Counted from the stretch's first letter, positions 1 to 14,839 are shown. The stretch is DNA of 24,000 nucleotides from Pseudomonadota bacterium (GCA_039819865.1 JBCBRF010000025.1:4333-28332); one strand, 5' to 3'. The notes: generated by a model not told the origin, from the sequence alone. A program made the numbers and translations.

Positions 1-824
1 TCGGTCGTCGCAACCTCGGATTGGGCTGGCGCGCGGTCGAGGCTCGGATCGACGAAGCGGAAGGCGGGCAGGGGGCCGGTGATGCGCAAGGTCAGGCCGA
101 ACGGCTCGGCGAGCGCGGCCCAGGCGCCGCCGGCCTCGGACAGCGCCTCGACCGATCCGCGGGCGGCGAGCACCGAGAGATCCAGCGCGAGGTCGGGGCG
201 GCCCGGCGCGACCTCGACGCTGGCCCGGCCGAGCCGGGCGGCGTCGCCGCGGATCCGGTCGAGCAGCGCGCCCGTGGCGGAGCGGCGGCGATCCTCGTCC
301 TGGCGACGGTCGAGCTTGCGGCGGAGATAAGCGCGGCCGTTCGGCGCCGTGGGCCGGGAGGCGGCGGGGGACGCGGGCGGGGTCCCGGGCGGGCTCCCGG
401 GCGGGGTCCCGGGCGGGGTCCCGGGCTGGGTCGAGATCAGGAGACGGATCTGGTACTCGGCGGCGCCGCGGATCCGGAGGAAAGCGGCTTTCAGCGCGTC
501 GGCGCGGTCCGGGTCGCCCGCGAGCCCGGCGGCGGTCTCCTCCGGCGTGCGGGTCGCGGCGCCGAAGCGCAGCGGCAGGACGTCGATGACCGCGGCCAGA
601 CGGCAGAGCGCGTCATGATGCGCCTTGGCGAGCCGGCCCGCCTGGTCGGGGTCCTCGCCGATCGGCCCCGCGGCGGGGTCGCTCTCGGTCAACCCCGCCG
701 GCGCGGTGGCGAGCAGCGCCAGACCGCCCGCGGGCGCGAGCGCGACCGGGTCGCCGCCCGTGAGCGCGGCGCGAGCGCGGTCGGCGTCGCGGGGATCGAT
801 CAGGCCGTGCGGCATCCAGAGCAT
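1..824 (-). CDS. GvpL/GvpF-family gas vesicle protein, truncated by the left window edge. It is absent from the ORF track because it has no stop codon in the window.
   Basis: Manual minus-strand translation from ATG at 824-822, with GGAGA about 10 nt upstream: MLWMPHGLIDPRD...VIDVLPLRFGAATRT...AEYQIRLLISTQ(PGTP)x4...NGRAYLRRKLD...LTLRITGPLPAFRFV. The frame stays open to position 1. The VLPxRFG, AEYxI, GRAYL and TGPxPxxxF motifs are typical of the GvpF/L family. Third codon positions are strongly GC. Confidence 0.8.
   Translation of the reverse strand, partial: MLWMPHGLIDPRDADRARAALTGGDPVALAPAGGLALLATAPAGLTESDPAAGPIGEDPDQAGRLAKAHHDALCRLAAVIDVLPLRFGAATRTPEETAAGLAGDPDRADALKAAFLRIRGAAEYQIRLLISTQPGTPPGTPPGSPPGTPPASPAASRPTAPNGRAYLRRKLDRRQDEDRRRSATGALLDRIRGDAARLGRASVEVAPGRPDLALDLSVLAARGSVEALSEAGGAWAALAEPFGLTLRITGPLPAFRFVDPSLDRAPAQSEVATT
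374..433. repeat. 12-bp tandem repeat (CGGGCGGGGTCC) x5, the last copy degenerate. It encodes a (PGTP)n linker inside the truncated GvpF/L gene.
   Basis: Read directly: copies at 374-385, 386-397, 398-409, 410-421 and 422-433. Minus-strand translation is PGTPPGTPPGSPPGTPPASP. Confidence 0.9.
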
Positions 825-870: not shown

Positions 871-1902
871 TCAGGCGGCGCCGGCGATGGGTTGGTCGGC
901 GTCGCTCTTGGCGGCGTCGCCCTCACGGCGGAGGACGGCGAGGATCGGCGGCGCGTCGGCGGACGCGCCGGCGGAGACGAGCGCCTGGCGGGCCTCGGCG
1001 ACGCGGCGGAGCAGCGTCTGCGCTTCGCCGAGCGTCCGGGTCAAGGCGGCCGAGGCCGCGCCCGCGACATCCGGATGAGCGCGCTTCACCGCGGCGCGGT
1101 AGGCCGCGCGCACCGCATCCACGCCCTCCGACGCGCGGACGCCCAGGGTCTGCTCGGCGGCGGAGACGGCGGCCGGGTCGGGACGGTCGAAGGCGATGCT
1201 GGCGAAGGAGCTGGCGGGCGCCGGGCCGATCATGCGGATCGCGAGCGCGCCCTCCCACTCCGCGTCGAAGCCCTCGAGCGCGGCCTCGAGCGCGGCGTCG
1301 CCGCCGCGACCGGTCAGCGCGACCACGTTCAGGATGGTCTCATCGTCGCCCTCCGGCAGACGGGCGAGGTCGACGGCGGCGGGCGCGAGGTCGAGCGCGT
1401 AGCGCGCCGCGAGGCGGGCGCGCTCGGCCTCGGAGGCCTCCTGCAGGATCCGCCCGGCGCCCGCGCGGTCGCCATCGGAGGCCGCCGCTCGCGCCGCGCC
1501 CCAAGCGGGATAGCGGGAGAGGCGCTGCAGCATCGCCTTCACCGGCGCTTTGATCAGGAGCTGGTGCTGCTCGAGATCGCCGTATTCGGACAGGCCCTCG
1601 GACAGCATCGAAGCGTTTGCGGCGAGGAAGCCCTGGAGCGCGCCGAAATCGGCCAGATCCGCGCCCGGCGCGGCCGGCAGGAGCGGCGCGACGGCGTGGG
1701 CGGCCTCGAGCGCGGCCTGGGTCTCGACCAAGGCTTTGCCGATCGCCTTGCGGGTCCGCCAGAAGCCGCCCTTGGCGGTCGGCAGGGCGAGCGCGGCGAG
1801 GCCGCGGGCGACCGCGATGTGGGCGTCGGAGCGCTCCAGCGCGGCCGAGGCCGCCACAGCGTCGGTTTCCGCCGTCACCGCCAGAAGGGTCAGGGCCGTC
1901 AT
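871..1902 (-). CDS. GvpL/GvpF-family gas vesicle protein with a C-terminal J-domain-like extension (HPD motif)
   Basis: 343-aa ORF. Residues 1-240 have the GvpF/L layout (HQLLIKAP strand, ALAIRMIGPAPASSFASI = GPxPxxxF C-terminal motif). Residues about 247-305 read AEQTLGVRASEGVDAVRAAYRAAVKRAHPDVAG..LTRTLGEAQTLL, which matches the J-domain pattern LGV..x..I..AYR.....HPD......eA...L. The HPD codons are at 1069-1077. The ATG at 1902 overlaps the upstream TGA (ATGA at 1899-1902), and GAGGAG lies upstream. Confidence 0.85.
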   Translation of the reverse strand: MTALTLLAVTAETDAVAASAALERSDAHIAVARGLAALALPTAKGGFWRTRKAIGKALVETQAALEAAHAVAPLLPAAPGADLADFGALQGFLAANASMLSEGLSEYGDLEQHQLLIKAPVKAMLQRLSRYPAWGAARAAASDGDRAGAGRILQEASEAERARLAARYALDLAPAAVDLARLPEGDDETILNVVALTGRGGDAALEAALEGFDAEWEGALAIRMIGPAPASSFASIAFDRPDPAAVSAAEQTLGVRASEGVDAVRAAYRAAVKRAHPDVAGAASAALTRTLGEAQTLLRRVAEARQALVSAGASADAPPILAVLRREGDAAKSDADQPIAGAA

Positions 1903-4187
1903 ATCGATCTCCTCACACCTGAATCGCGCGCGTTAGGATCGCGCACGTTAGAATCGCGGACGGTTGGGTCGCGCGCCTCGACCGCCTCGCGTCCGGCGCC
2001 CATGGACATCCGCTCGAGCGGGCGGGCCGCCGCCGGCGCGCGCCCGGAAGCCGTCCGGCTCGCCGACAGCTCGGCCGCGGCCGCGTCGAAATCATCCGGG
2101 ACCGCCCTCGGCGGGGCGTCCGCATTCGCCCCGGCCTCGATCCAACGCCGGATCGCGCTCCGTCCGGCGATCTCGCACAGCGCCTTCAGGTCCGCGCCGA
2201 CCCACCCTTCGAGGCTTTCGGCGACGCGGTCGAGCGCGACGTCGTCGGCGCGCGGCAGATCGGCGGCGTGGATCGCCAGGATCTCGGCCCGCGCGGCGGC
2301 GTCGGGCGCGCCGATCTCGAGCGTCAGGTCGAAGCGGCCCGGGCGCAGCAGCGCCGGGTCCACCGCGCTCGGGCGGTTGGTGGCGGCCAGAAGCGTCACG
2401 CCGCGCAGTTCGTCCACGCCGTCGATCTCCGTCAACAATTGCGCCGTCACCCGGCCGATCGCGCCATGGTCCGACTCGCCTCGGACGGGAGCCAGCGCGT
2501 CGATCTCGTCGAAAAAGAGGATGCACGGCGCCGAGGCTCGGGCTTTGCGGAACAGCTCGCGGACGCCGCGCTCGGCGTCGCCCAGGAAACGGGAGAGCAG
2601 CTCCGCGCCGCGGACGGGGATGAAGTTCACGCCGGCCTCGTGGGCGAGGGCGCGGGCGAGATGGGTCTTGCCGGTTCCGGGCGGCCCCGCGAGCAGAACG
2701 CCCTTGGCGGGCTTGAGGCCGATGGCGCGGTAGGCGGCCTCGTGACGGAGCGGCCAGATCACGGCCTCGACGAGCGCGCGCTTGGCCTCGGCGGCGCCGC
2801 CGACGTCGGACCAGCGCGTCTCGGGCGTCTCGATCGCGACCTCGCGGAGCGCGGACGGGCCGACGGTTTTGAGCGCGGCGTCGAAGTCTTCGGGTTCGAC
2901 GGCGACGTTGTCGGGTGCGGCGTCTTCGCCCAGACGGCGGAGCGCGGCGAGGCCGGCTTCGCGGGCGAGCGCGGCGAGATCGGCGCCGACATAGCCATGG
3001 GCCGCGGCGGCGACCGCGTCGATCTCGACGCGGTCGGACAGCGGCATGCGCTCGGCGTGGACGCGCAGGATCGCGGCGCGGCCGGCGCGGTCGGGCGGCG
3101 AGAAGGCGATCTCACGATCGAAGCGGCCCGGGCGGCGGAGCGCGGGGTCGAGCGCGTCGGGCAGGTTGGTCGCCGCCATCACGATCACCCGGCCGCGGGC
3201 GGAGAGGCCGTCCATCAGGCCGAGGAGCTGGGCGACGACGCGGCGCTCGAGCTGGCGATCCTCGGCCATGTTGGCGCGCTTCGGCGCGATGGCGTCGATC
3301 TCGTCGATGAAGATGACGCTCGGCGCCTTGGCTTCGGCGGATTTGAACAGCTCGCGGAGCCGGCTTTCGCTGTCGCCGTAGTGCTTCGAGACGATCTCGG
3401 GGCCGGTGAGCTGGAAGAAGGCGGCTTCGGTCTCCTCGGCGACGGCGCGGGCGAGCAGGGTTTTGCCGCAGCCGGGCGGGCCGGAGAACAGCACGCCCTT
3501 CGGCGCGTCGACGCCGAGGCGCTGGAACAGGTCGGGCCGGCGGAGCGGCAGCTCGACCATCTCGCGGACCTGGGCGAGTTCGCGGTCGAGGCCGGCGATC
3601 CCGGCGTAGCCGCGGGATCCGGGGCGGGCCTTGGCGGCGGTCGGGTCGGCGCGCAGGCCGAGCCGGGTGGCCGCCGTCACCAGGAGCGGGCCCTCGGGCG
3701 CGGCTTCGGCGATGATCGCCTCGATCGTGACGCCGCCGAGCAGGCGGATGCGGACCCGATCGCCGAGGGCGGCGGGGGTGTCCTCCATCGCGTTCCTGAT
3801 CCGGCCGGCGAGGGCCTCGGTGGCGCGCGGCGCGCCGGCGGAAAGGCTCAGGACCAGGGTCTCGGCGGGTCGGGCGGAGGCGGTCGCGACCGCGACGGGC
3901 TCGCCGAGGCCGACGCCGGCGTTGGCGCGCTGGATCTCGTCGAGCAAGATGATCGAGGCGCCGCGGCTTTGGGCGTGGGCGGGCAGCGCGCGGGCGTAGG
4001 TGGCGCGGTCGGCGCCGACGCCCGAGAGCTTGAGCAGATCGCCCGCGCGGGCGCCGAGGCGCGCCAGGTCGGCCGGGTCGAGCCGGGCCACGGCCCGATC
4101 GGCGTCGCCCGGGGCGGCGCCCGCGGCGATCAACGTGACGGCGCCCGCGGAAGCGGCGGCGCCCGGCTCGGCCCGGACGTCCGACAT
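1899..4187 (-). CDS. CDC48/VAT-type double AAA+ ATPase (N domain + D1 + D2)
   Basis: 762-aa ORF. The N-terminal double-psi-barrel-like region reads GDLLKLSG...ILLDEIQRANAGVGLGEPV. D1 has Walker A GPPGCGKT, pore loop SKHYGDSE and Walker B VIFIDEIDA. D2 has Walker A GPPGTGKT, pore loop SRFLGDAE and Walker B ILFFDEIDA. Both domains have RRPGRFD/LRPGRFD arginine-finger regions. The C-terminal tail has RDxxV repeats and no HbYX motif. Confidence 0.92.
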   Translation of the reverse strand: MSDVRAEPGAAASAGAVTLIAAGAAPGDADRAVARLDPADLARLGARAGDLLKLSGVGADRATYARALPAHAQSRGASIILLDEIQRANAGVGLGEPVAVATASARPAETLVLSLSAGAPRATEALAGRIRNAMEDTPAALGDRVRIRLLGGVTIEAIIAEAAPEGPLLVTAATRLGLRADPTAAKARPGSRGYAGIAGLDRELAQVREMVELPLRRPDLFQRLGVDAPKGVLFSGPPGCGKTLLARAVAEETEAAFFQLTGPEIVSKHYGDSESRLRELFKSAEAKAPSVIFIDEIDAIAPKRANMAEDRQLERRVVAQLLGLMDGLSARGRVIVMAATNLPDALDPALRRPGRFDREIAFSPPDRAGRAAILRVHAERMPLSDRVEIDAVAAAAHGYVGADLAALAREAGLAALRRLGEDAAPDNVAVEPEDFDAALKTVGPSALREVAIETPETRWSDVGGAAEAKRALVEAVIWPLRHEAAYRAIGLKPAKGVLLAGPPGTGKTHLARALAHEAGVNFIPVRGAELLSRFLGDAERGVRELFRKARASAPCILFFDEIDALAPVRGESDHGAIGRVTAQLLTEIDGVDELRGVTLLAATNRPSAVDPALLRPGRFDLTLEIGAPDAAARAEILAIHAADLPRADDVALDRVAESLEGWVGADLKALCEIAGRSAIRRWIEAGANADAPPRAVPDDFDAAAAELSASRTASGRAPAAARPLERMSMGAGREAVEARDPTVRDSNVRDPNARDSGVRRSI
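1921..1980. repeat. 15-bp tandem repeat x4 in the 3' end of the AAA+ gene, encoding an (RDxxV/A)x4 tail
   Basis: Copies are gaatcgcgcgcgtta (1921-1935), ggatcgcgcacgtta (1936-1950), gaatcgcggacggtt (1951-1965) and gggtcgcgcgcctcg (1966-1980). Minus-strand translation is RDPTVRDSNVRDPNARDSGV. Confidence 0.85.
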
Positions 4188-4360
4188 CAGGCGCTCCTGC
4201 GGATCCCGGCGTGAGCGCGGCCGTCCTGCTCCAGCGCGCGGGCGCGGAGACCGCGGCGGCCAAAGCGGCGGCGGGACCAGAACACGGCGACGCGGGCGTC
4301 CTCGACGACGCGACGGCGGGCGACCCGACGGGTCGGTTTTCGAGCGGCGATGATCTTCAT
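4187..4360 (-). CDS. Small Arg-rich hypothetical protein (57 aa), translationally coupled to the AAA+ ATPase. It is below the ORF-track size cutoff.
   Basis: Manual translation from ATG at 4360-4358: MKIIAARKPTRRVARRRVVEDARVAVFWSRRRFGRRGLRARALEQDGRAHAGIRRSA*. The stop TGA (4189-4187) shares one base with the ATPase ATG (4187-4185). Third positions are mostly G/C. AAGGGA lies about 11 nt upstream. No family recognised. Confidence 0.4.
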   Translation of the reverse strand: MKIIAARKPTRRVARRRVVEDARVAVFWSRRRFGRRGLRARALEQDGRAHAGIRRSA

Positions 4361-4507
4361 GGGGTTGAGCGTCCCTTGCCTGTATTGCGGCCTTTGGTTT
4401 TTCGGCCGTTTTTGTTTGGTCTCTGCAGTCGGGTCGTCGCGCCGGTTCGCCCGGTCTTTTTTGGTTTTTTTGTCGTTTGGTCGTCGGGTCGTTCGTTCAG
4501 GCCCGCC
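4361..4507 (-). promoter_or_regulatory. Unusually A-rich (on the transcript strand) 147-bp intra-operon spacer made of an imperfect duplication. Possible internal promoter, RNA processing site or RNA element.
   Basis: This is one of the few low-GC stretches on the gvp side. There is a 10-bp direct repeat GTCGGGTCGT at 4427-4436 and 4483-4492. Each copy is preceded by GTTTGGTC and by T-runs (tttggtttttcggccgtttttgtttggtc versus ttttttggtttttttgtcgtttggtc). On the minus strand this gives repeated ACCAAA/GACCAAAC motifs. The minus strand has no ATG or GTG here. Confidence 0.45.
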
Positions 4508-4756
4508 TCAGCCGGCGCGGCCCTGCCTCTGGATGTCGCGGAGCCGGGTGAGGAGCTTCAGCTCCGCCTCCTCATATTCCTCCTCCGAGATCTCGCCGGC
4601 GTCGAGCATTTGCTCGAGGACCAGGATCTGACGCTTGATCTCGGCGGGGTCGTTCATCTGCTCGAGCGCGTGGTCGTGGATCTTCCGTCCGATCCACAGC
4701 GCGGTGTGGAGCGGGGCCGTGATCGGCAGGGTCAGAAGCGTTGAGAGCAGGCCCAT
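4508..4756 (-). CDS. gvpG: Gas vesicle protein GvpG
   Basis: 82 aa: MGLLSTLLTLPITAPLHTALWIGRKIHDHALEQMNDPAEIKRQILVLEQMLDAGEISEEEYEEAELKLLTRL. It has the hydrophobic N-terminus plus the GEISEEEYEE helix characteristic of GvpG. GAAGGAG SD upstream. Confidence 0.9.
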   Translation of the reverse strand: MGLLSTLLTLPITAPLHTALWIGRKIHDHALEQMNDPAEIKRQILVLEQMLDAGEISEEEYEEAELKLLTRLRDIQRQGRAG

Positions 4757-4782: not shown

Positions 4783-5637
4783 TCAGCCCGCGAGGGCGGC
4801 GGGCTCGACCGCGTTGGGGGCGGCCCAGGCGAGCTGGAGCGAGACGAAGCTGTAGGCCGGGCCTGGCCCGACGATCTTCACCGTCAGGCGCCCCGGCGCC
4901 TCGGCCTCGACGGCCTCGAGCGCGGCGACGAGATCGGCCTGGGCGACGCGGTCGAGCAGGGCGTCGGCCTTCAGGACCATCATCTCATCCTCCGGCGCGC
5001 CGAAGGCGAGCGAGCGGGTCAGCGGTTCGAGGCGCTCGATCAGGCGGTGGCGCTCCTCGGTGCGCTTGGTCTCGAGCGCGGCGTCGACCTTCCGGCCGAG
5101 CTCGATGCGCTGGTAATGGGTCTCGGTCGCGGAGCGGGCGGCGAGGGCCTTGTAGGCGCTTTGCAGCTCGGGCCGGGCGGCCACGACCTCGCGCATCGCG
5201 GTCTCGCGGTCCCAGGAGACCTTGATCCCGCACTCGACGGCGCCGGCCAAATCGTCGAGGGCGGCCAACAGGGGATCCTCGTTGGCGGCGATGGTGGCGC
5301 GGATGCGGTCGACCTCCGCCGTGATCAGGCCGAAGCGCATCGGCAGAACGTCGGCGCGGGCCATCAGGGTCTCGAGCGCCTTGGCGTGGCCGAGCATGTT
5401 GCGCCGCGTGGAGAGCACCTCGTCGACGTCGATCGGGCTCGCGATGACGGTGAGCGGGCCGCACGCGACCAGAAAGGGCTCGTCGCCGGGGGCGGAGACC
5501 GGCTTGAACGCCAGATCGAGATCGGCGCCGGCGCGGGCGACGGCGTAGATGTAGACGTTGCCCTCCGCGCCGGGTTCGACGGCCTGGACGGCGGGCGGGG
5601 TCGCGGTGTCGGTCTCGATCTCGGTATTGGCGGTCAT
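4783..5637 (-). CDS. gvpF: Gas vesicle protein GvpF (GvpL/GvpF family)
   Basis: 284 aa: VYIYAVARA..., VLPMRFGLI, ECGIKVSWD, RLTVKIVGPGPAYSFV. These are canonical GvpF/L motifs. Sits immediately upstream of gvpG. Confidence 0.92.
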   Translation of the reverse strand: MTANTEIETDTATPPAVQAVEPGAEGNVYIYAVARAGADLDLAFKPVSAPGDEPFLVACGPLTVIASPIDVDEVLSTRRNMLGHAKALETLMARADVLPMRFGLITAEVDRIRATIAANEDPLLAALDDLAGAVECGIKVSWDRETAMREVVAARPELQSAYKALAARSATETHYQRIELGRKVDAALETKRTEERHRLIERLEPLTRSLAFGAPEDEMMVLKADALLDRVAQADLVAALEAVEAEAPGRLTVKIVGPGPAYSFVSLQLAWAAPNAVEPAALAG

Positions 5638-5645
5638 CGGCGGCC

Positions 5646-6341
5646 TCAGAAGCGTTGATCGTAGGCGGGCGGCCGCTGCGCGTCGGCGCGGCGCGGGATG
5701 CGGATCTCGAGGATGCCGTTGATCAGGCGGGTCTCCGCCCGCTCGCGGACGGCGTCCTCGTCGATGTCGGCGGGCAGCCGCGCCTCGCCGCGGAACTTGC
5801 GCGCGCCGGCGGTCTCGATCGCGAGCATCGGGCCCTCGGCGCGGAGCACGACGTCGTCCGGCGCGACGCCCGGCAGTTCGACCACGGCGACCCAGGCGTC
5901 CGCCTCGTCATAGACGTCGAGGACGGCTTCGCGCACGCGCTCCGGCGCGGGGCCCTGCGCGACGCTTTCGCCGCGGTCCTTCAATTCAAAATCGTTCGCT
6001 CCGGAGGCGTCGTCCTGGTCGGGGCGGATCGGACGGGCGCGCACGCCCCAGGAGGCGGTCACGCCGCCTTTCGCCACCGCGTCGCCGTCGCGGGCGCGTT
6101 TCTCCAACTCGCCGGCCAGGGTGTGGAGCGCGCCCGCGAGGCCGCCCGCCACGCCTTGCGCGGCGGTCTGCACGCTGTCGAACAACCCGCTCAGGCGCTG
6201 GCCGATTTCGTCGACGGCGGCCTGGCCCGTCAGGGTGTCGGCGCCCGAGCCGCCGGCGCCGGACGTCTCCGCGCCCGCGCTCGACCCGGCCGTTTTGTCG
6301 GCGTCGGAGGCGTCCGTTTGGTCGTCACGCGTATCGGTCAT
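5646..6341 (-). CDS. Hsp20/alpha-crystallin-domain protein (GvpH-like) with a disordered Gly/Ala/Asp-rich N-terminus
   Basis: 231 aa. The C-terminal portion VLDVYDEADAWVAVVELPGVAPDDVVLRAEGPMLAIE...RLINGILEIRIPRR fits the alpha-crystallin domain pattern (LPGV...NGVLEI.iP). AAGGAGAG SD upstream. Confidence 0.85.
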   Translation of the reverse strand: MTDTRDDQTDASDADKTAGSSAGAETSGAGGSGADTLTGQAAVDEIGQRLSGLFDSVQTAAQGVAGGLAGALHTLAGELEKRARDGDAVAKGGVTASWGVRARPIRPDQDDASGANDFELKDRGESVAQGPAPERVREAVLDVYDEADAWVAVVELPGVAPDDVVLRAEGPMLAIETAGARKFRGEARLPADIDEDAVRERAETRLINGILEIRIPRRADAQRPPAYDQRF

Positions 6342-6357: not shown

Positions 6358-6765
6358 TCAGACGCCGAGCTGCTGCAGGCGCTTTTCGAGGATCGCGAGG
6401 CGGCCGCGCAGCTCGCGGTTCTCCTGGGTCAGAACGGCGAGGCGGGCAGGGTCGACGGTCTCGATCGGCGCCGCGATCGGCGGGGCCGGCGGCTCCAGCC
6501 GCGGCGCGCCTTCGGCGCTTTCGAGCGACCCGTGGTGGAAGCCGGCGCCGCCGGTCAGCGAGGGATCGTGGGCCCACCAGTCGATGCCCATCTCGATCGC
6601 CTTATCGACCGTGGTGATCAGCAGCCGGAGCTTGACGCTCAGCAGCTCGATGCCGACCAGCGAGACCGTGACGTCGCCCGCGATCACGACGCCCTTGTCG
6701 AGCACCCGCTCGAGCACGTCGGCCAGGCTGTCGCTGTGGATCGGGCTGTGGATGGCGTGGGACAT
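6358..6765 (-). CDS. gvpJ: Gas vesicle protein GvpJ (GvpA/J/M family)
   Basis: 135 aa: SLADVLERVLDKGVVIAGDVTVSLVGIELLSVKLRLLITTVDKAIEMG is the GvpA/J core. The longer C-terminal extension is typical of GvpJ rather than GvpA. Confidence 0.9.
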   Translation of the reverse strand: MSHAIHSPIHSDSLADVLERVLDKGVVIAGDVTVSLVGIELLSVKLRLLITTVDKAIEMGIDWWAHDPSLTGGAGFHHGSLESAEGAPRLEPPAPPIAAPIETVDPARLAVLTQENRELRGRLAILEKRLQQLGV

Positions 6766-6789: not shown

Positions 6790-7047
6790 TCAGGCGACGG
6801 CGTCGTTCTCGAAACGGGAATGCTTGCGCAGACGCCGGTAGCCGGTCAGGCCGCCCTCTGCGTCCAGCTCGTACTGGTAGGTGGTCAGCAGGTCGTCGTC
6901 GCCGAGGCGGGCCTTGCTCTCGAGCACGTCGACCTCGACGATCCAGCCGTCCTCGCGCTTTTCGCACCGAACGATGCTGTCGAAGGCCTGGCCGGTCATC
7001 TCGTCGGAGAGCTCGCGGGCGAGGCGGGTGACGTCGCGCAGATTCAT
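6790..7047 (-). CDS. gvpO: Gas vesicle protein GvpO
   Basis: 85 aa: ...EMTGQAFDSIVRCEKREDGWIVEVDVLESKARLGDDDLLTTYQYELDAEGGLTGYRRLRKHSR. This matches the GvpO pattern (DGW.v.vEv.E..R.p...D.l..Y.v.lD..G.l..YrR). Confidence 0.85.
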   Translation of the reverse strand: MNLRDVTRLARELSDEMTGQAFDSIVRCEKREDGWIVEVDVLESKARLGDDDLLTTYQYELDAEGGLTGYRRLRKHSRFENDAVA

Positions 7048-7062
7048 CGGATGGTCCTTTCG

Positions 7063-7314
7063 TCAGGAGCTGTGCGCCGCGCGGTCGTCAGCCGCCTGGA
7101 GCATCTGGTTGAGAAGCCGCACGCGGGCGGCGAGCACGTCGAGCTGGCGCTCCGCCTTCAGACGGCGCTGGTTGATCATGCCGAGGTCGCGCTCGATGCG
7201 GTCGCGCTCGTATTCGAGGCGGACCAGTTCCGCGGCGATCTCGGGCCGGGTCCGAGGCTTTCGCCGCGCGAGCGAGCTCGGACGGGTCGGCACATGGGGC
7301 ATGGTGCGCTTCAT
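7063..7314 (-). CDS. Small basic coiled-coil protein, possibly GvpV-like, translationally coupled to gvpN
   Basis: The track ORF 7063..7626 overlaps gvpN out of frame. The plausible start is the ATG at 7314-7312, which forms ATGA with the gvpN stop (7313-7311). Product is 83 aa: MKRTMPHVPTRPSSLARRKPRTRPEIAAELVRLEYERDRIERDLGMINQRRLKAERQLDVLAARVRLLNQML. A short basic N-terminus plus heptad coiled coil after gvpN resembles my recollection of GvpV, but this was not verified. Confidence 0.6.
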   Translation of the reverse strand: MKRTMPHVPTRPSSLARRKPRTRPEIAAELVRLEYERDRIERDLGMINQRRLKAERQLDVLAARVRLLNQMLQAADDRAAHSS

Positions 7315-8309
7315 GCGGCTTTCTCCGTCGGCGGCGCCGGGCAATGCTCGCGGATCGCGGCGCGCAGGCGCTCGAAGAACTTGCTGCGGGCGTCGGCGAC
7401 CGAGGCGACGTCGTCGCGATCGGAGGGCGCGCGGGACTCGAGCGCGTCGAAGCAGAGCTGGACGAAACGCTCGTCGGCGCAGTTCGGGCGCAGGCCCTGG
7501 TCGGCGGCGATGCGGGCGATCAGGATGGCGGTGCGCATCGAGGGCGGGGCGGCGCGGCCCATCAGGACGCCGTCGGCCTGCGCAGCGGCGCGGAGCGCGC
7601 GGACCAGCATCACGATCGGCCGGCAATGCTCGGGCGCGAGGCGGGAGCGGGCGGCGACGACGCCGAGCTCCGTTTCCGCGTCGAAGTACGAGAGATCGAA
7701 GGTGATCATCCGGTCGAGGAGCGCGTCCTGCGGCGCCTTGACCGCGGCGTATTCGGCCGGGTTCGAGGTGAAGATCGCGCGGAACTCGGGATGCGCCTCG
7801 ATCACCCGGCGCTCGCGGCCCGGGGTCGAGAGGACGAGCACGCCCTCTTCGAGCGCAGCGAGCAGCGGGTTGTTGGCTTCGGGCGGGGAGCGGGTGAACT
7901 CGTCATAGACGAGCGTGTAGCCCTCCTCCATCGCGACCGTGAGCGCACGGTCCTCCCAAAGCTTGGAGGTCGCGCTCTCGGTCTTCGTCACGTTGTGGAT
8001 GAAGCGGTCGTGGACCCGCTTGGTGCGCTCGCCCACCGCCTCGCCCACGAGATTGGCCCCGGTGAACCAGCCGTCGCCGGCGATCGTTACGGTGGGTCGA
8101 TCCAGAGCGGCCGCGAGCTGCATCGCGAGGGTCGTCTTGCCGGCGCCCGCGGGACCGCGGAAATGCACGGCGACCCCGGCGCGCAGATAGGCCAGCGCCC
8201 GGCTCTCGATCGAAGCGATCGCGGCGTCGCGGAACAGATCCGCACGGGGCTTCAGCCAGCGCGCATCGGCGCGGAGGCCTTCGGCTTGCGGCTTTTCGGC
8301 GGCGCTCAT
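7311..8309 (-). CDS. gvpN: Gas vesicle protein GvpN (AAA+/MoxR-like ATPase)
   Basis: 332 aa. Walker A is FRGPAGAGKTTLA and Walker B is TLVYDEFTRS. Also NPLLAALEEGVL, FRAIFTSNP and ALLDRM, which is the typical GvpN signature. Confidence 0.93.
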   Translation of the reverse strand: MSAAEKPQAEGLRADARWLKPRADLFRDAAIASIESRALAYLRAGVAVHFRGPAGAGKTTLAMQLAAALDRPTVTIAGDGWFTGANLVGEAVGERTKRVHDRFIHNVTKTESATSKLWEDRALTVAMEEGYTLVYDEFTRSPPEANNPLLAALEEGVLVLSTPGRERRVIEAHPEFRAIFTSNPAEYAAVKAPQDALLDRMITFDLSYFDAETELGVVAARSRLAPEHCRPIVMLVRALRAAAQADGVLMGRAAPPSMRTAILIARIAADQGLRPNCADERFVQLCFDALESRAPSDRDDVASVADARSKFFERLRAAIREHCPAPPTEKAA

Positions 8310-8456: not shown

Positions 8457-8948
8457 TCAGGGCGCGGCGATATCGAACAGCCGCGCAAGGGCGGTCCGAT
8501 AGTCGTCCACCATGCCGAGCGCCTCGTCGAGATAGGCCTCCCAGCGCGCTTCGAGATCGGCGTCGGGGTTCGAGGGCTCGGCGATTGCGAGCGGCGTCGG
8601 GTCGTGGGCGGCGAGGGCGGCGCGGACGGCGTCCGCCGTCTCGGCGACGAAGGCCGCGTCGCAGCGGCGCAGGGCGCCCTCGCCCATCGGGCGACGGCCT
8701 CGCACGGCGGCGGCGATGCGTCGGTCGCTGGTCAGGATCAGATCCAGCTCATGCCAGAACGGCGCGTCGCGCCCGTCGCGGGTGTCGGCGGCGGCGACGA
8801 CGACGCCCTCGACACGGAGCGGCCGGAGGCCGTGGCGCGGCAGGAGCAGGGTGCGAAAAGGATCGCTCGGCGACGCCGTCTCGTCGCACGGTCCGCCCCG
8901 AACCGGGACGTGGTCCGGCGCGACGAGGATCTGCACGGAGAAGCTCAC
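8457..8948 (-). CDS. Hypothetical protein (about 163 aa) between the HhH-tail protein and gvpN
   Basis: The 5' part of track ORF 8457..9143 overlaps the upstream gene. A GTG at 8948-8946 lies 5 nt after the upstream stop (8954-8956), with AAAGG upstream. Product: VSFSVQILVAPDHVPVRGGPCDE...APFWHELDLILTSDRRIAAAV...LEARWEAYLDEALGMVDDYRTALARLFDIAAP. High GC3. No family recognised. Confidence 0.55.
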   Translation of the reverse strand: MSFSVQILVAPDHVPVRGGPCDETASPSDPFRTLLLPRHGLRPLRVEGVVVAAADTRDGRDAPFWHELDLILTSDRRIAAAVRGRRPMGEGALRRCDAAFVAETADAVRAALAAHDPTPLAIAEPSNPDADLEARWEAYLDEALGMVDDYRTALARLFDIAAP

Positions 8949-8953
8949 GACGC

Positions 8954-9865
8954 TCAGCCTTTCTTGGCGCTCGCGTCCGCGCTTTTGGCGGAGCCGGCGC
9001 CCTTGTCGGCGGATTGGGCGAAGGCGATCCAGCCTTCGAGATCGAGCAGCGCGCCGATTTCGCCGAGCTTTTCGCGGAGCGTCGCGGCGTCGGCGGCGGC
9101 GAGTTCTTCGAGGTTGGCGACGCCCGCCTCGCTCAGCATCCATTCGAGGCCCGGACCGGCGCCCGGCAGGCCGGCGAGGTCCACGACGACCTGGGGCTTC
9201 GCGGCGCGGCGCGCGCGGGGCTTTTTCGGCGCGACGCGCTTTGGCGTGGCGGGTTTCGAGGCGGCGGGTTTGGAGGCGACCTGCTCGGGCTCGGCGGGCT
9301 TCGTGGCGACGCGCTTCGCGCGGGCCGGCTTTTCCACGGTGGCGTCGACCGCGGCCTCGGCCGGCTTGGCGGCGGCGCGCTTGCGGCGGCGCGGCGGCGC
9401 CGTCGTCTCGGCTTGCGCCTCGGATTGAGCGTTGGCCGCGTCCGCCTTGGCTTTGGCGCTTGCGGCGCGGGAACGGCGCTTTGCGGGCGCCCGACGCTGG
9501 GCGGCCGGCTCCGGAGCGGGCTCGGCCTCCGGAGCGGCATCCTGCGCAGGCTCAGCAAGGTTGTCGACGGCTTCGTCCACCGAGGCGTCCGTCTCCGGCG
9601 CGGTTCCGGCGGCCTCTTCCGCGAAAGCGCGGGCCGCGGCGGACGCGGACAGCGTCTCCTCCATCGCGCGACCGACGGTCTCAACAGCGGCGGTCGCGGT
9701 CTCGAACGCCGTCTCGACCAGATCGGCGGCGGCCTCGACGCCCGCATCCACGGCCGCGCCGCCGCGGCCCGGTCGGCGACGCGCCGCCCTCAGCTCCGCC
9801 AGCTTGGCGCGCGCTTCGCGGCGAACCTCTTGGACGCGAGACTTGTAAGAGGGGGCGTTGCTCAT
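8954..9865 (-). CDS. Ala/Pro/Lys/Glu-rich low-complexity protein with a C-terminal helix-hairpin-helix-like domain, immediately downstream of gvpA
   Basis: 303 aa. The N-terminal basic helix is MSNAPSYKSRVQEVRREARAKLAELRAARRR. The central part has KPA-type short repeats (AAKPAEAAV..ATKPAEPEQVASKPAASKPATPKRVAPKKP). The C-terminus VVDLAGLPGAGPGLEWMLSEAGVANLEELAAADAATL resembles the GIGPxLExxLxxxGI HhH module common in alphaproteobacteria. Codon usage is consistent with coding. Confidence 0.7.
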   Translation of the reverse strand: MSNAPSYKSRVQEVRREARAKLAELRAARRRPGRGGAAVDAGVEAAADLVETAFETATAAVETVGRAMEETLSASAAARAFAEEAAGTAPETDASVDEAVDNLAEPAQDAAPEAEPAPEPAAQRRAPAKRRSRAASAKAKADAANAQSEAQAETTAPPRRRKRAAAKPAEAAVDATVEKPARAKRVATKPAEPEQVASKPAASKPATPKRVAPKKPRARRAAKPQVVVDLAGLPGAGPGLEWMLSEAGVANLEELAAADAATLREKLGEIGALLDLEGWIAFAQSADKGAGSAKSADASAKKG

Positions 9866-9951: not shown

Positions 9952-10164
9952 TTAGGCGGCCTGCGGATCGACCGTAAGGCCGATGGCCTCGGCGTATTTC
10001 AGCCAGGTCTCGACCGACGCGATGACCGCGCGAGCCTCGATCGCGATCAGCTCGATGCCGACCAGCGCGACGCGCACGAACGCGTCGATGACGACGCCTT
10101 TGTCCAGGATGCGGTCGACGACCTCGGCGAGGCTGCTCGACGCAACGCTTTTCTCAATAGCCAT
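9952..10164 (-). CDS. gvpA: Major gas vesicle structural protein GvpA
   Basis: [63 protein letters not shown] (70 aa) is near-canonical GvpA. The ATG at 10164 has a GAGGAA SD 7 nt upstream. The track ORF start at 10206 would add a non-conserved 14-aa extension. Confidence 0.95.
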
Positions 10165-10441
10165 GGGGTTTTCCTCAGAGCAGGGGCTGTTCACTCGCCG
10201 CGACAAATCCGCCGACGGCGTGCATGACCCTGCGTCGTGATCGTTAAGAAGTTGCTGAAGCTTGCGGCGAAAACACGCTGGATAATGAAGATTTTACTCT
10301 TTTTTTCGGCGCGAACAGACCGGTATTCGGGCGGCGCGCCGTATTTGTGAAAACGCGATTAACGCAATTCGTCCGTTGTTTGCTCTCCGTTAAGGGCCCG
10401 CGTGCGATGCGACGCTCCGACGCATTCGTTCGGAGCCGACC
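10165..10441. promoter_or_regulatory. Divergent gvpA / tal-pyp control region
   Basis: 277-bp intergenic stretch, locally AT-enriched (ggataatgaagattttactctttttttc). It contains a tandem direct 9-mer AACGCGATT/AACGCAATT (10352-10369), CGTTAA/TTAACG motifs at about 10242, 10357 and 10389, and a 7-bp hairpin GCTCCGA (10414-10420)/TCGGAGC (10430-10436) that includes the tal GGAG SD. The promoters themselves were not identifiable by eye. Confidence 0.6.
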
Positions 10442-12103
10442 ATGGGCCTGTCCCTCGCATCCCTCATCGACGAAACGACGCCCGAGACGGCGTCGCCGGC
10501 CCTCCTCGAGGATGGGTTAGGGCTGTCCGCCGCCGATACGGTGGCGCGGGGCGCGCGCATCATCGCCATCGGACCCGCGGCCTGGGAGCGGATCCGCGCG
10601 GCGCAGGCGCGGCTGGCGCGGGCGATCGCGGAACGGCGCGTCGTCTATGGCGTGACGACCGGTTTCGGGCCGCTCGCCGATCGGCTGGTGCGGCCCGAGG
10701 ATGTCGAGACGCTGCAGCGGAACCTAATCTACCACCTCGCCACCGGCGTCGGAGCGCCGCTGTCCTGGGAAGCGGCGCGCGCCACCGCGCTGGCGCGGCT
10801 CTGCTCCATCGCGCAGGGCTGGTCGGGGGCTTCGGACCCGATGGTCGAGGCCCTGGTCGCGCTGTTGAACTCCGACCTCGCGCCCTGGATCCCGGAGAAG
10901 GGCACGGTCGGGGCGAGCGGCGATCTGACGCCGCTCTCTCATCTTGCGCTGGCGCTTATGGGCGAGGGCGCGTTCATCGATCGCGCCGGGAACCGGATCG
11001 AGGGCGGCGCCGGGCTCGCGCGGATCGGCGTTCCGCCGTTGACGCTCGCCGCGCGCGACGGGCTCGCGCTGGTGAACGGCACGGCGGCGATGACCGGGAT
11101 CGCGGTGCTGAACGGCGCGCGCGCGGCGGCGCTGCTGGAGTGGGCCGAAGCGCTGACCGGCCTGCATGCGGAGCTCTTGCGCGGGCGCTCAGAGGCTTGG
11201 GACCCGGCGCTCTCGGCGGCGCGGCCGCATCCTGGGCAGGTCGCGGCGTCCGATCGGCTGCGCGCGCGGATCGAGGGCGCGCCTCGGATCGACGCGACGC
11301 GGGCGGCCGAGCGGATTCTGCCGCAAAGCGGCGACGCTCCGCCGCAAGACGCCACGCCGCTTCAAGACCCCTATTCGATCCGCTGCGCGCCGCAGATCCT
11401 CGGCGCCGCGCGGGACGCGCTCTCGTGGCATGACGCGGTGATCGAGCGGGAACTGAACAGCGCGTCGGACAATCCGATCTTCGCCGAGGACGCGGCGATC
11501 GCAGTCCATGGCGGCAACTTCATGGGGTGCCATGCGGCGCTGGCGTCGGACGCGCTCAAGAATGCGGTCGTGCTGACGGCGGTGCTTTCGGAGCGCCAGA
11601 TCGCGCGACTGACGGACGAGAAGCGCAATGGCGGGCTGCCGCCCTTCCTCAATCGCGGGCGCGTCGGGCTGGAGAGCGGCCTGATGGGCGCGCAGGTGAC
11701 GGCCAGCGCCCTGGTCGCGGAAATGCGGGCCTTCGGCGGGCCGGCCTCGACGCAGTCGATCTCGACCAACGGCGCGAACCAAGACGTCGTCAGCCTCGGC
11801 ACGATCGCGGCGCGCGGCTGCGCGGACATCCTCGAGGACGCGGCCCGCGTGCTGGCGATCCAGGCCATCGCCGTCGCGCAGGGCGCCGATATCGTCGGGC
11901 GCGAGGCGCTGTCGCCCGCCGGCGGCGCGCTCGCCGAGCGCATCCGAAGCGTCGTGGCCCCTTTGACGTCCGATCGTCCACTCCACGCGGACATTGAGCG
12001 GCTTTCACAGGAAATTGTAGAACAAACCGCCGGACAAGACTGCGAATTCTACAAAAATCCGACCCACGCCAGCCTAGGGAAGAATTCACACCAGGCTCGA
12101 TGA
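10442..12103 (+). CDS. tal: Tyrosine ammonia-lyase (aromatic amino acid lyase, MIO-dependent)
   Basis: 553 aa. The Ala-Ser-Gly MIO triad in GTVGASGDLTPLSHLA is at 10913-10921. Also VYGVTTGFGPLA, QDPYSIRC and NGANQDVVS. The selectivity-switch position reads NLIYHLATG (His98 at 10733-10735). This is the His-Leu state associated with tyrosine rather than phenylalanine specificity in Rhodobacter TAL. Sits next to pyp. Confidence 0.9.
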   Translation: MGLSLASLIDETTPETASPALLEDGLGLSAADTVARGARIIAIGPAAWERIRAAQARLARAIAERRVVYGVTTGFGPLADRLVRPEDVETLQRNLIYHLATGVGAPLSWEAARATALARLCSIAQGWSGASDPMVEALVALLNSDLAPWIPEKGTVGASGDLTPLSHLALALMGEGAFIDRAGNRIEGGAGLARIGVPPLTLAARDGLALVNGTAAMTGIAVLNGARAAALLEWAEALTGLHAELLRGRSEAWDPALSAARPHPGQVAASDRLRARIEGAPRIDATRAAERILPQSGDAPPQDATPLQDPYSIRCAPQILGAARDALSWHDAVIERELNSASDNPIFAEDAAIAVHGGNFMGCHAALASDALKNAVVLTAVLSERQIARLTDEKRNGGLPPFLNRGRVGLESGLMGAQVTASALVAEMRAFGGPASTQSISTNGANQDVVSLGTIAARGCADILEDAARVLAIQAIAVAQGADIVGREALSPAGGALAERIRSVVAPLTSDRPLHADIERLSQEIVEQTAGQDCEFYKNPTHASLGKNSHQAR

Positions 12104-12697: not shown

Positions 12698-13072
12698 ATG
12701 GAAATCATCCCGTTCGGCGCCAACGACATCGACAACATCCTGCAGCGTGAGCCCCACCGGGCCGAGGCGCTGCCGTTCGGCGCGATCCTGCTGAGCCGTC
12801 AGGGCAAGATCCTGAAGTACAACGCCGCCGAGGGCCTGATCGCCGGCCGCAGCGCCGGCGACGTCATGGGCAAGGACTTCTTCAACCAGATCGCCCCGTG
12901 CGCCAAAGGCAAGCGGTTCCACGGCGAGTTCTTGAAGTTCGCCCAGACCGGCCAGGTCAACACGATGTTCGACTACACCTTCGAGTACAAGATGAAGCCG
13001 GTGAAGGTGCGGATCCACATGAAGTCGAACGCTGGCGGTGAGAACTGCTGGCTGTTCATCAAGCGCGCCTAA
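12698..13072 (+). CDS. pyp: Photoactive yellow protein (PAS-fold xanthopsin)
   Basis: 124 aa: MEIIPFGANDIDNIL...LPFGAILLSRQGKILKYNAAEGLIAGRS...FFNQIAPCAKGKRFHGEF...NTMFDYTFEYKM.PVKVRIHMK...WLFIKRA. It aligns along its whole length with Halorhodospira PYP. The chromophore Cys (Cys68, TGC at 12899-12901), Tyr41, Glu45 and Arg51 are conserved. The Thr50 equivalent is Ala. GGAGA SD 8 nt upstream. Confidence 0.97.
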   Translation: MEIIPFGANDIDNILQREPHRAEALPFGAILLSRQGKILKYNAAEGLIAGRSAGDVMGKDFFNQIAPCAKGKRFHGEFLKFAQTGQVNTMFDYTFEYKMKPVKVRIHMKSNAGGENCWLFIKRA

Positions 13073-13669: not shown

Positions 13670-14839
13670 ATGCTCCGACGCGCCGAGATCGACCGGCTGG
13701 TCGCATCTCTTGTCGCAGATGAAATCGGCCGCGCGCGGAAGCGTGCGGTCGATTTCGCCGTTTGGGGGGCCTGGACCCCTGAGACCACGGTCGACGAGGA
13801 TGGGGTTGGCGCCGACAGCCTGACCCGGCTCGAGGTCGTGGCGCGCGTGAACGAGTTCTTTCACCTGCATGAGAGCGGCGTCGAGGACTATCTCCTGGTG
13901 CGCCGGACGCTCGGCGACTGGAGCGAGATCGTCGCCGAGGGGCTGAAACTGGCCGGCGAGCGGATCACCTTCCGCAGCTCCGGCAGCACCGGCGCGCCGA
14001 AGACGGCGACCCATTCGATGGCCGATCTGACAGCCGAGATCGATGCGGTCTGGGAGCGGATCGGCCCGCGCGGGCGGATCCTGAGCTGGACGCCGCCGCA
14101 TCATATCTACGGGTTCCTGTTCACCGCTCTGCTGGCGGCTCGACGCGACCGGCCGGTGGTCGAGATGCGCGCCAAGGCGCCGTCGCTGCGCGCCGTCGCG
14201 GATGGCGATCTGCTGGTCGCGACGCCGTTTCAATGGGCGCTCTGCCTGAAGGCGGGCGGCGTGGACGCCGAGGACGTCGTCGGATTGAGCGCCGCGGCGC
14301 CGGCCTCTGAGGACATCTGGTCGGGGGCCGCCTCGGCGGGGATCCGGTTGGTCGAGATTTACGGCTCGAGCGAGACCGCGGGCGTCGGCCTGCGCGAGGC
14401 GGGCGACGCGCCGTTCGAGCTGCTGCCGCGCTGGTCGCGCGGCCCAGGGGACGCACAGCTGCGCGATGCGGGCGGGGCCCTGATCGACGCGCCGGACGCG
14501 CTCGACTGGGAGGTGGATCGACGGTTTCGCCCGGCCGGACGGCGCGACGGCGTGGTCCAGGTGGGCGGCGTGAACGTCGATCCGGCGATGGTCCGCGCCG
14601 TGCTCCAGGACATTGATTGGGTCGAAGAGGCCGCCGTGCGCCTGGACGAGAACGGCGCGGACGGCGGCCGGCTGAAAGCGTTTCTCGCAACCCGCGGCGC
14701 ACCGCCTGAAGAAGAGGCGCTTCAGCGCGTCGTTCAGCATTGCGCCGAGCGACTGGAAGGGCCCGCGCGACCGGCGTCGTTCCGACTGGGGTCCGATCTC
14801 CCGCGAAACGCGATGGGCAAACTGGCCGACTGGACCTGA
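13670..14839 (+). CDS. pcl: p-Coumarate (4-hydroxycinnamate) ligase of the PYP chromophore pathway; short adenylate-forming enzyme with an N-terminal carrier-protein-like segment
   Basis: 389 aa. It has the AMP-binding P-loop SSGSTGAPK, plus IYGSSETAG and a terminal K in NAMGKL. The N-terminal 90 aa contain GVGADSLTRLEVVARVNEFF (Ser50 AGC at 13817-13819). The genetic context, tal-pyp-pcl, matches that described for Rhodobacter and Halorhodospira. Confidence 0.85.
   Translation: MLRRAEIDRLVASLVADEIGRARKRAVDFAVWGAWTPETTVDEDGVGADSLTRLEVVARVNEFFHLHESGVEDYLLVRRTLGDWSEIVAEGLKLAGERITFRSSGSTGAPKTATHSMADLTAEIDAVWERIGPRGRILSWTPPHHIYGFLFTALLAARRDRPVVEMRAKAPSLRAVADGDLLVATPFQWALCLKAGGVDAEDVVGLSAAAPASEDIWSGAASAGIRLVEIYGSSETAGVGLREAGDAPFELLPRWSRGPGDAQLRDAGGALIDAPDALDWEVDRRFRPAGRRDGVVQVGGVNVDPAMVRAVLQDIDWVEEAAVRLDENGADGGRLKAFLATRGAPPEEEALQRVVQHCAERLEGPARPASFRLGSDLPRNAMGKLADWT

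Follow-up and report, generated by a model that had tools for sequence, protein, structure and literature searches.

A CDC48/VAT-type ATPase gene within gas-vesicle gene clusters and its putative chaperone partners

In the reviewed gas-vesicle (gvp) gene clusters of Halobacterium, Anabaena, B. megaterium and Serratia, GvpN is the sole ATPase discussed (PMC9501494). A stretch of DNA from a Pseudomonadota bacterium (GCA_039819865.1, JBCBRF010000025.1:4333-28332), analysed here over its whole length of 24,000 nucleotides (nt) and referred to as the window, carries a gvp operon in which a second AAA+ ATPase gene lies among the gvp genes. A preliminary description, made from the sequence alone, proposed that it is a CDC48/VAT-type unfoldase which forms a dedicated proteostasis module with a J-domain fusion protein and a small heat-shock protein (sHsp). 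We hold with high confidence that the gene is what this description took it to be and that it is associated with gvp clusters; its function is argued at a lower level of confidence below.

Some members of the family are already annotated as 'CDC48 family AAA ATPase', so that the gvp-linked CDC48 gene is visible in public annotation yet, as far as we searched, undescribed in the searchable literature. A full-text search of open papers found no description of a gas-vesicle CDC48, VCP or unfoldase gene, and no mention of the fusion between GvpL and a J-domain (hereafter GvpL::J) was found in the searchable literature. What appears to be new here, judged from sequence comparison, is a gvp-dedicated bacterial CDC48 clade that lacks the C-terminal HbYX motif (hydrophobic residue, tyrosine, any residue) and has conserved sHsp and J-domain partners.

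The ATPase and its family

Sequence profiles, a search of solved structures, a predicted model and a fold search agree in identifying the product of the window gene, labelled 'AAA family ATPase' in the source record, as a genuine VAT/CDC48-type double-ring AAA+ ATPase and predicted unfoldase. Pfam CDC48_N matches residues (aa) 19-103 with 58.4 bits (threshold 35.1), and there are two matches each to AAA (292 bits) and to AAA_lid_3; Pfam CDC48_2 gives no match in the window protein, although it does so in homologues. The NCBIfam model of the CDC48 subfamily, TIGR01243, scores 728.9 bits, just below its cutoff of 802.65, in an alignment that covers 4-681 of the 733 model positions. Among solved structures the best match is Thermoplasma VAT (5g4f), which aligns over aa 18-682, N domain included (E = 4e-167), and p97/CDC48 structures rank after it. 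An AlphaFold2 (AF2) monomer model, for which 68 aligned sequences served as input, has a mean predicted local distance difference test score (pLDDT) of 89.4. In this model all-beta elements form two subdomains at aa 17-180 (pLDDT >90), two alpha/beta AAA modules carry their lids, and aa 727-762 are disordered (pLDDT <50). Foldseek searches with the model returned full-length matches to p97 and CDC48 chains at E values of about 1e-73.

Both rings contain a sensor-1 Asn and the arginine fingers of the second region of homology (RRPGRFD / LRPGRFD). These features and the Walker A and B motifs are invariant or nearly so in alignments of 68 and 91 sequences, and with both rings catalytically equipped the ATPase is probably fully active. 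The preliminary description had read a full N-D1-D2 protein with both Walker A/B sets intact; the CDC48_N and AAA matches, the VAT alignment over the N domain, the AF2 model and the motifs (Table 1) bear this out. Longer hits were considered as domain fusions that might hint at a partner and were rejected: two of them (P0002 and P0003; 993 and 1024 aa) carry triplicated AAA modules, and an apparent 895-aa fusion at locus L047 arose from an open reading frame (ORF) extension that ran past a stop.

The position of the protein within the CDC48 family was examined in a neighbour-joining (NJ) tree of 91 sequences and 704 columns, a rough tree in that it is NJ only and has a small outgroup. Nine generic archaeal CDC48s (from Bathyarchaeia, Thermofilaceae, Methanomassiliicoccus, Thorarchaeota and other sources) split from the 82 other sequences in 100 of 100 bootstraps, and the window ATPase falls into one group with six sequences from Alphaproteobacteria or unclassified Pseudomonadota, likewise in 100 of 100. 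A signature of the clade follows the D1 sensor-1: it reads ATN[IL]P, where generic archaeal CDC48s have ATNRP. The gvp-linked members also often carry a two-residue insertion in D1 pore loop 2. Members without gvp linkage occur at loci L065, L068 and L074-L076. The lineage of the ATPase is mostly bacterial, and its genes nearly always lie within gvp clusters.

Archaeal Cdc48 and VAT are reported to use an HbYX motif at the C-terminus for docking on the 20S proteasome. The generic archaeal sequences P0119, P0057 and P0094 terminate in VYR, FYV and LYT, respectively. The window ATPase ends in GVRRSI, without the motif, and a penultimate Tyr is present in only one of 66 gvp-linked sequences, the borderline case of L066 (ending in AYR). 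The actinobacterial members of the clade, whose hosts possess 20S proteasomes, likewise lack HbYX. The preliminary description had argued from the missing motif against a proteasome cap, and the argument extends to nearly the entire clade. Because HbYX is absent from the window protein and nearly all of its relatives, a proteasome-cap role is rejected, and the ATPase is predicted not to feed a proteasome.

Association with gvp clusters and partner genes

The genomic context of the gene was surveyed from two anchors, and both of the resulting large locus sets consist of the 80 best matches to the window's own proteins (ATPase or GvpN). The ATPase-anchored set comprises the 80 best genomic loci, at 44-61% identity, from Alphaproteobacteria, Ignavibacteria, Planctomycetota, Chloroflexota including Ktedonobacteria, Zixibacteria, Acidobacteriota, Thermodesulfobacteriota, Actinomycetes, Bacillota and one Halobacteriota metagenome-assembled genome. 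Genes of the gvp type lie within 10 kb of the ATPase in 64 of these loci, and at least two Gvp families are represented in 61; nine of the 16 loci without gvp genes have less than 3 kb of sequence on at least one side of the ATPase gene. In the metagenome scan anchored on GvpN (80 loci, GvpN 42-52% identical to that of the window), the ATPase is present in every locus whose sequence extends 5 kb or more past gvpN on the downstream side (27/27). It is also present at the GvpN-anchored locus L099, where it is cut inside the N domain. ATPase and gvpN co-occur in the GvpN-anchored loci and neither replaces the other; in the window, too, a separate GvpN is present, as the preliminary description had said, and scores above the TIGR02640 cutoff. 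That description had proposed a survey of this kind and had named as damaging to its case the finding of an unrelated insertion, not conserved in related clusters. Such an insertion is ruled out by synteny from both anchors, and the gene recurs in gvp clusters across many phyla.

Precomputed Pfam labels in two cultured species, Rubrimonas cliftonensis (L081) and Rhodoblastus acidophilus (L082), show the same gene order as the window: GvpN-x-GvpO-GvpJ-x-GvpF-GvpG-ATPase-GvpL-GvpF-GvpA-like-GvpF-GvpK. Plasmid-borne gvp clusters provide an independent, small sample. Methylosinus sp. C49 (pMSC49b) has an intact gene after gvpH, annotated 'CDC48 family AAA ATPase'. On a Methylocella tundrae plasmid (L085, 17265-19474) a CDC48-like gene (pairwise E = 1e-150) is annotated in three pieces. 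One, of 170 aa, holds CDC48_N/CDC48_2, one is an ORF of 88 aa, and one is a 490-aa 'AAA family ATPase' with its start inside D1; either the gene is a pseudogene with a frameshift or the sequence contains an error. The gvp cluster of Nostoc sphaeroides plasmid p4 (L084, 9801-13584) ends with an ArsA-family (Get3-like) ATPase, directly followed by a 613-aa double-AAA protein with 47% identity to the D1-D2 region of the window ATPase and without CDC48_N. No such CDC48-like ATPase was found in the Spartinivicinus and haloarchaeal plasmid clusters. The gene marks a large and widespread lineage of gvp clusters and is not universal.

Neighbouring genes were called by tblastn with the window's proteins as queries, and since these are diverged, the Hsp20 counts are lower bounds. 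The immediate upstream neighbour of the ATPase is an Hsp20 gene in at least 41 of 94 gvp-linked loci and gvpG in 6 of 94, as in the relatives of the window; immediately downstream, a GvpF/L gene is found in 60 of 86. The consensus order over gvp-linked loci is A-N-H-C-F-F-(F)-G-A-F, and the usual order is gvpA-gvpN-hsp20-cdc48-gvpL::J. The downstream GvpLs are 330-360 aa long, and 33 of 42 have an HPD motif near residue 280-310. Nine of the ten tested exceed the Pfam DnaJ threshold, at 30-66 bits. These neighbour and motif counts reinforce the idea of a module.

The window's own copies of the two partners are more diverged. The Hsp20-like gene named in the preliminary description stands, with a weak match above the Pfam threshold (Table 1). 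Its J-domain GvpF/L holds in part: the GvpL family assignment and the HPD are there, and the protein's own DnaJ score is sub-threshold (17.3 bits, threshold 27.8). The protein retains the pattern LGV...YRAAVKRAHPD, and the HPD does not vary among the GvpL orthologues of Rubrimonas, Rhodoblastus and locus L001. On this sequence evidence the window GvpL is a diverged orthologue of the J-domain GvpLs. GvpL::J is itself widespread across phyla (L012, L015, L017, L028, L003, L052 and others), with DnaJ scores of up to 66 bits.

Hsp20 genes also adjoin CDC48-like genes in places where no gvp genes are present (L030, from Nitrosotalea; L034, from Methanobacteriota; and L021). The archaeal pairs are in line with a report that the Phr/HSR1 heat-shock regulons of Euryarchaeota include genes for an sHSP and for an AAA+ ATPase (PMC10653856). 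Because Hsp20-CDC48 pairs exist away from gvp genes, the pairing may predate recruitment into gvp clusters. The AAA+ ATPase of the Phr/HSR1 regulon is presumably of the CDC48 type.

Operon layout and neighbouring genes

The window has a G+C content (GC) of 0.70. All genes of the operon are on the minus strand and run from gvpA to a third gvpF/L gene at the window edge (Table 1).

Table 1. Features of the window, by position from its first nucleotide.
Feature	Coordinates	Strand	Evidence or remark
Third GvpF/L paralogue, reaches window edge	3-824	-	Pfam GvpL_GvpF, 81 bits
GvpL/GvpF with C-terminal J-domain-like extension	871-1902	-	Pfam GvpL_GvpF, 56.7 bits
J region of this GvpL	about 973-1164	-	
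HPD of this GvpL (aa 276-278)	1069-1077	-	
ATGA start/stop overlap, ATPase and GvpL::J genes	1899-1902	-	GAGGAG at 1909-1914
CDC48/VAT-type AAA+ ATPase gene, 762 aa, ATG start	1899-4187	-	Member of gvp-linked clade
ATPase C-terminal tail, aa 716-762, disordered, RD-rich repeats, without HbYX	1902-2042	-	AF2, sequence
ATPase D2 AAA+ module, aa 455-715	2043-2825	-	Motifs and Pfam
D2 Walker B, FFDEID (DE, aa 560-561)	2505-2510 (DE)	-	
D2 pore loop, RFLGDAE (aa 533-539)	2571-2591	-	
D2 Walker A, GPPGTGKT (aa 501-508)	2664-2687	-	
ATPase D1 AAA+ module, aa 193-450	2838-3611	-	Motifs and Pfam
Clade signature after D1 sensor-1 (aa 337-344)	3156-3179	-	
D1 Walker B, FIDEID (DE, aa 295-296)	3300-3305 (DE)	-	
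D1 pore loop, KHYGDSE (aa 268-274)	3366-3386	-	
D1 Walker A, GPPGCGKT (aa 236-243)	3459-3482	-	
ATPase N domain, aa 17-180, double-psi barrel and second beta subdomain	3648-4139	-	Pfam, AF2, VAT alignment
Doubtful 57-codon Arg-rich ORF	4187-4360	-	Stop overlaps ATPase start, TGATG 4185-4189
GvpG-ATPase gap, 320 nt	4188-4507	-	
A/C-rich spacer, 147 nt, almost T-free on sense strand	4361-4507	-	GC about 0.55
GvpG	4508-4756	-	Pfam GvpG, 78 bits
GvpF	4783-5637	-	Pfam GvpL_GvpF, 174.5 bits
Hsp20/alpha-crystallin-like, 231 aa, domain aa 145-221	5646-6341	-	Pfam HSP20, 24.4 bits (threshold 20.8); NCBIfam archaeal Hsp20, 53 bits; Hsp20 models below cutoff
GvpJ-like (GvpA family)	6358-6765	-	Pfam Gas_vesicle, 64.6 bits
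GvpO	6790-7047	-	Pfam GvpO, 63.4 bits
Small, apparently helical ORF between gvpN and gvpO	about 7063-7310	-	
GvpN (MoxR-type AAA+), canonical gvp ATPase	7311-8309	-	TIGR02640, 293 bits (cutoff 267); Pfam AAA_5
Two unannotated ORFs between gvpA and gvpN	about 8457-9865 (about 8457-8900; 8954-9865)	-	
GvpA	9952-10206	-	Pfam Gas_vesicle, 58 bits
TAL-like aromatic lyase, next to gvpA	10442-12103	+	
124-aa PAS protein, size of photoactive yellow protein (PYP)	12698-13072	+	
AMP-binding ligase	13670-14839	+	
Methyl-accepting chemotaxis protein with NIT (nitrate/nitrite-sensing) domain	15095-17692	+	

Translational coupling of the ATPase gene on both sides had been part of the preliminary description, and only the downstream side is upheld. 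There, the ATGA overlap joins two real genes, is preceded 6 nt 5' by a GAGGAG Shine-Dalgarno sequence, and is kept as a 4-nt overlap in Rubrimonas and Rhodoblastus. The upstream TGATG depends on the 57-codon ORF, which is an orphan. It has no Pfam or NCBIfam match, a comparison with 1.84 billion representative proteins gave no true match except its own gene call, no counterpart is present at related loci, and its codon-position GC is atypical. In the relatives, GvpG runs up to or into the start of the ATPase gene, leaving no gap. Coupling through this ORF is unsupported because the ORF is an orphan that is missing in relatives in which GvpG abuts the ATPase. The A/C-rich spacer is found at the window locus alone, and together spacer and ORF form an insert between gvpG and the ATPase gene. 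No Rfam element, promoter or terminator was detected in the 320-nt gap, and the ATPase start has an AGGAG of its own 6 nt upstream.

Several ORFs of the operon are unassigned, and those at 8457-9865 and about 7063-7310 have no Pfam match. One, of 303 aa (8954-9865), is rich in Ala, Lys, Glu and Pro, and its C-terminal part looks helix-hairpin-helix-like by eye. Unlabelled ORFs also occupy the position between gvpN and gvpO in Rubrimonas and Rhodoblastus.

Beyond gvpA, the three plus-strand genes for the lyase, the PAS protein and the ligase look like those of PYP and of its chromophore. A lyase and a ligase flank the gvp clusters of Rubrimonas and Rhodoblastus too, and the latter also has a small PAS protein. 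Adjacency of PYP and gvp genes is known for R. capsulatus and Loktanella (PMC3646047). The chemotaxis protein gene lies just past the PYP genes.

Proposed function, alternatives and known systems

Our favoured explanation, which we consider reasonably probable given the gene content, is that the sHsp, GvpL::J and the ATPase form a dedicated set of holdase, Hsp70 recruiter and unfoldase for GvpA-family proteins during vesicle biogenesis. VAT and CDC48 hexamers unfold proteins by threading. In the proposed scheme, the sHsp would hold the extremely hydrophobic GvpA-family proteins (GvpA, GvpJ, GvpS/M), and the J-domain on the GvpL scaffold would recruit host DnaK. The CDC48-like hexamer would engage clients via its N domain and thread them through the D1 and D2 pore loops. 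Threading might dissolve off-pathway aggregates, or strip subunits off the holdase or off GvpF/L complexes, and in either case return them to assembly. GvpA-family proteins aggregate unless chaperoned and are proteotoxic in E. coli, and GvpF/L proteins bind them (PMC12848028, PMC9501494). In favour of the scheme we count the family and fold, the catalytic and pore motifs conserved in both rings across the clade, the co-orientation and ATGA overlap with gvpL::J, the gvp linkage in both surveys and in the cultured Rubrimonas, Rhodoblastus and Methylosinus, the separation from generic archaeal CDC48, the conserved Hsp20 and GvpL::J neighbours, the missing HbYX tail, and the archaeal Hsp20-CDC48 pairs together with the Phr/HSR1 regulon. 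We infer the substrates, the cooperation with sHsp and Hsp70 and the direction of action from what the clusters encode.

Several observations weigh against this proposal. Best-80 sampling overestimates prevalence among all gvp clusters. The ATPase is missing from the gene lists given for the clusters of Halobacterium, Anabaena, B. megaterium and Serratia (PMC9501494), and from the cluster of Octadecabacter arcticus (L086), which otherwise has almost the gene order of the window. Since vesicle-forming clusters do without it, the ATPase stands outside the core vesicle mechanism, and its gene is accessory, not essential. The Octadecabacter locus nevertheless encodes GvpL::J (15722-16804) and Hsp20, and because these two occur without the ATPase, the three need not form one machine. 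To our knowledge, cooperation of a CDC48-type ATPase with Hsp70 and J-proteins is not established in bacteria. The pore loops require a qualification as well. The two that the preliminary description had called aromatic are both present, but in D1 the usual aromatic position is His in the window protein and its two closest relatives, where at least 60 relatives read K-F/Y-Y-G; the adjacent Tyr270 is invariant in the clade alignment.

The same enzyme could act in the opposite direction, as a disassembly or recycling motor that extracts GvpA from intact or pressure-collapsed shells and so lowers buoyancy or reuses the protein. We regard this as fairly unlikely. CDC48 and VAT are known as segregases, able to remove subunits even from stable assemblies, the shells of vesicles are highly stable, and the adjoining PYP, tal and pcl light-sensing genes suggest regulated buoyancy; yet the gene sits in the middle of a biosynthetic operon, start/stop-coupled to gvpL, which points to co-expression with assembly and not with removal, and its sequence offers nothing that would separate disassembly from assembly quality control. 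An elaborate form, in which the hexamer works together with the sHsp and a DnaK-recruiting GvpL::J as a dismantling machine for intact or collapsed shells, is unlikely. If true, it would provide an active route to lower buoyancy and to reuse shell protein, possibly under PYP or light control, and would represent the first CDC48 segregase dedicated to an organelle, and the first partnership of CDC48 with Hsp70, in bacteria. A direct role in construction is quite improbable: with or upstream of GvpN, the ATPase would energize insertion of GvpA into the rib or remodel the GvpF/L-G-J-K nucleation complex. It constantly accompanies gvpN in this type of cluster, its immediate neighbours are GvpF/L scaffold proteins, and the energy source of shell growth is unknown (PMC9501494). 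Clusters without the ATPase still build vesicles, however, and the conserved sHsp neighbour points to the handling of non-native protein.

The ATPase may also belong to a generic sHsp-CDC48 heat-shock cassette that a mobile gvp island captured and kept by linkage, with no vesicle-specific role. The Hsp20-CDC48 pairs without gvp genes and the five clade members outside gvp clusters, both described above, fit such an origin. We nonetheless think it very improbable, as the position among gvp genes is kept at only 44-61% identity in Chloroflexota, Planctomycetota, Ignavibacteria, Actinomycetes, Acidobacteriota and Proteobacteria and start/stop overlaps with gvp genes are conserved too, which together indicate long-term selection inside the cluster. 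Scarcely probable at all, in our view, is a regulatory unfoldase or protease partner that unfolds a regulator or surplus Gvp protein for degradation and thereby sets stoichiometry. A precedent exists in haloarchaea, where GvpD lowers GvpE; many AAA+ unfoldases feed proteases, and assembly needs balanced amounts of Gvp proteins (PMC9501494, PMC12848028). But HbYX is absent in almost all clade members, including actinobacterial ones with 20S proteasomes, and no protease gene is present in the clusters of the window, Rubrimonas and Rhodoblastus.

The holdase, Hsp70-recruiter and unfoldase set proposed here bears on how the hydrophobic, amyloid-like GvpA stays soluble and reaches the growing shell. 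Unfoldase, sHsp and GvpL J-domain are encoded in the sampled gvp clusters (best-80 loci, many phyla) and none of them in the four model clusters, which may explain why the triad was overlooked. The chaperoning step of vesicle assembly thereby becomes open to direct tests. There is a practical side as well, as aggregation of GvpA limits heterologous gas-vesicle reporters through proteotoxicity (PMC12848028), and co-expression of the triad is an obvious candidate remedy. If the proposal is true, bacteria would also have a CDC48 whose client system is defined.

Among known systems, GvpN is a single MoxR-type module (AAA_5) without an N domain or second ring. ArsA homologues and Hsp20 in gvp operons were reported by Castillo and Saier in 2010 and proposed to energize biogenesis, in a paper that does not mention a CDC48-like gene (PMC2963123). 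These ArsA/Get3-like proteins are a precedent for an extra ATPase, although their fold is unrelated to that of CDC48.

VAT of Thermoplasma acidophilum (5g4f, 5vc7/5vca) shares the N-D1-D2 architecture with two active classical AAA rings. Its pore loops are KYYG and KWVG, compared with KHYG and RFLG in the window ATPase, so that each protein has Tyr or another aromatic residue in both rings. By analogy, the VAT mechanism, that of a hexameric threading unfoldase, is expected for the window ATPase as well. VAT is a general archaeal enzyme, whereas the window clade is encoded in gvp operons, carries ATN[IL]P and nearly always lacks HbYX. The eukaryotic relative p97/VCP/Cdc48 matches the structural model along its entire length (Foldseek E = 2e-73, about 40% identity) and has the same domain order and segregase logic. 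Its clients are ubiquitylated and are handled by way of UBX and Ufd1-Npl4 adaptors, for which no equivalent is present in or near gvp clusters. Cpa/Msm0858 (5e7p), an actinobacterial Cdc48-like double-ring ATPase, scores 307 bits against 561 for VAT and has no gvp context; it has been reported to interact with the proteasome.

In its logic, the set resembles the sHsp-DnaK/DnaJ-ClpB (Hsp104) system, and we infer the analogy from the shared combination of a holdase, a J-domain recruiter and a double-ring motor. In the gvp set the genes for all three adjoin one another, the J-domain forms part of a fusion with GvpL, and cooperation among the three is putative. The motor itself differs, being of the classical CDC48 clade without an M-domain: the ClpA model TIGR02639 scores only 38 bits, and the AF2 model has no coiled-coil insertion. 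Membership in the ClpB/Hsp104 family is therefore rejected, and the window ATPase may still act in a disaggregase-like manner.

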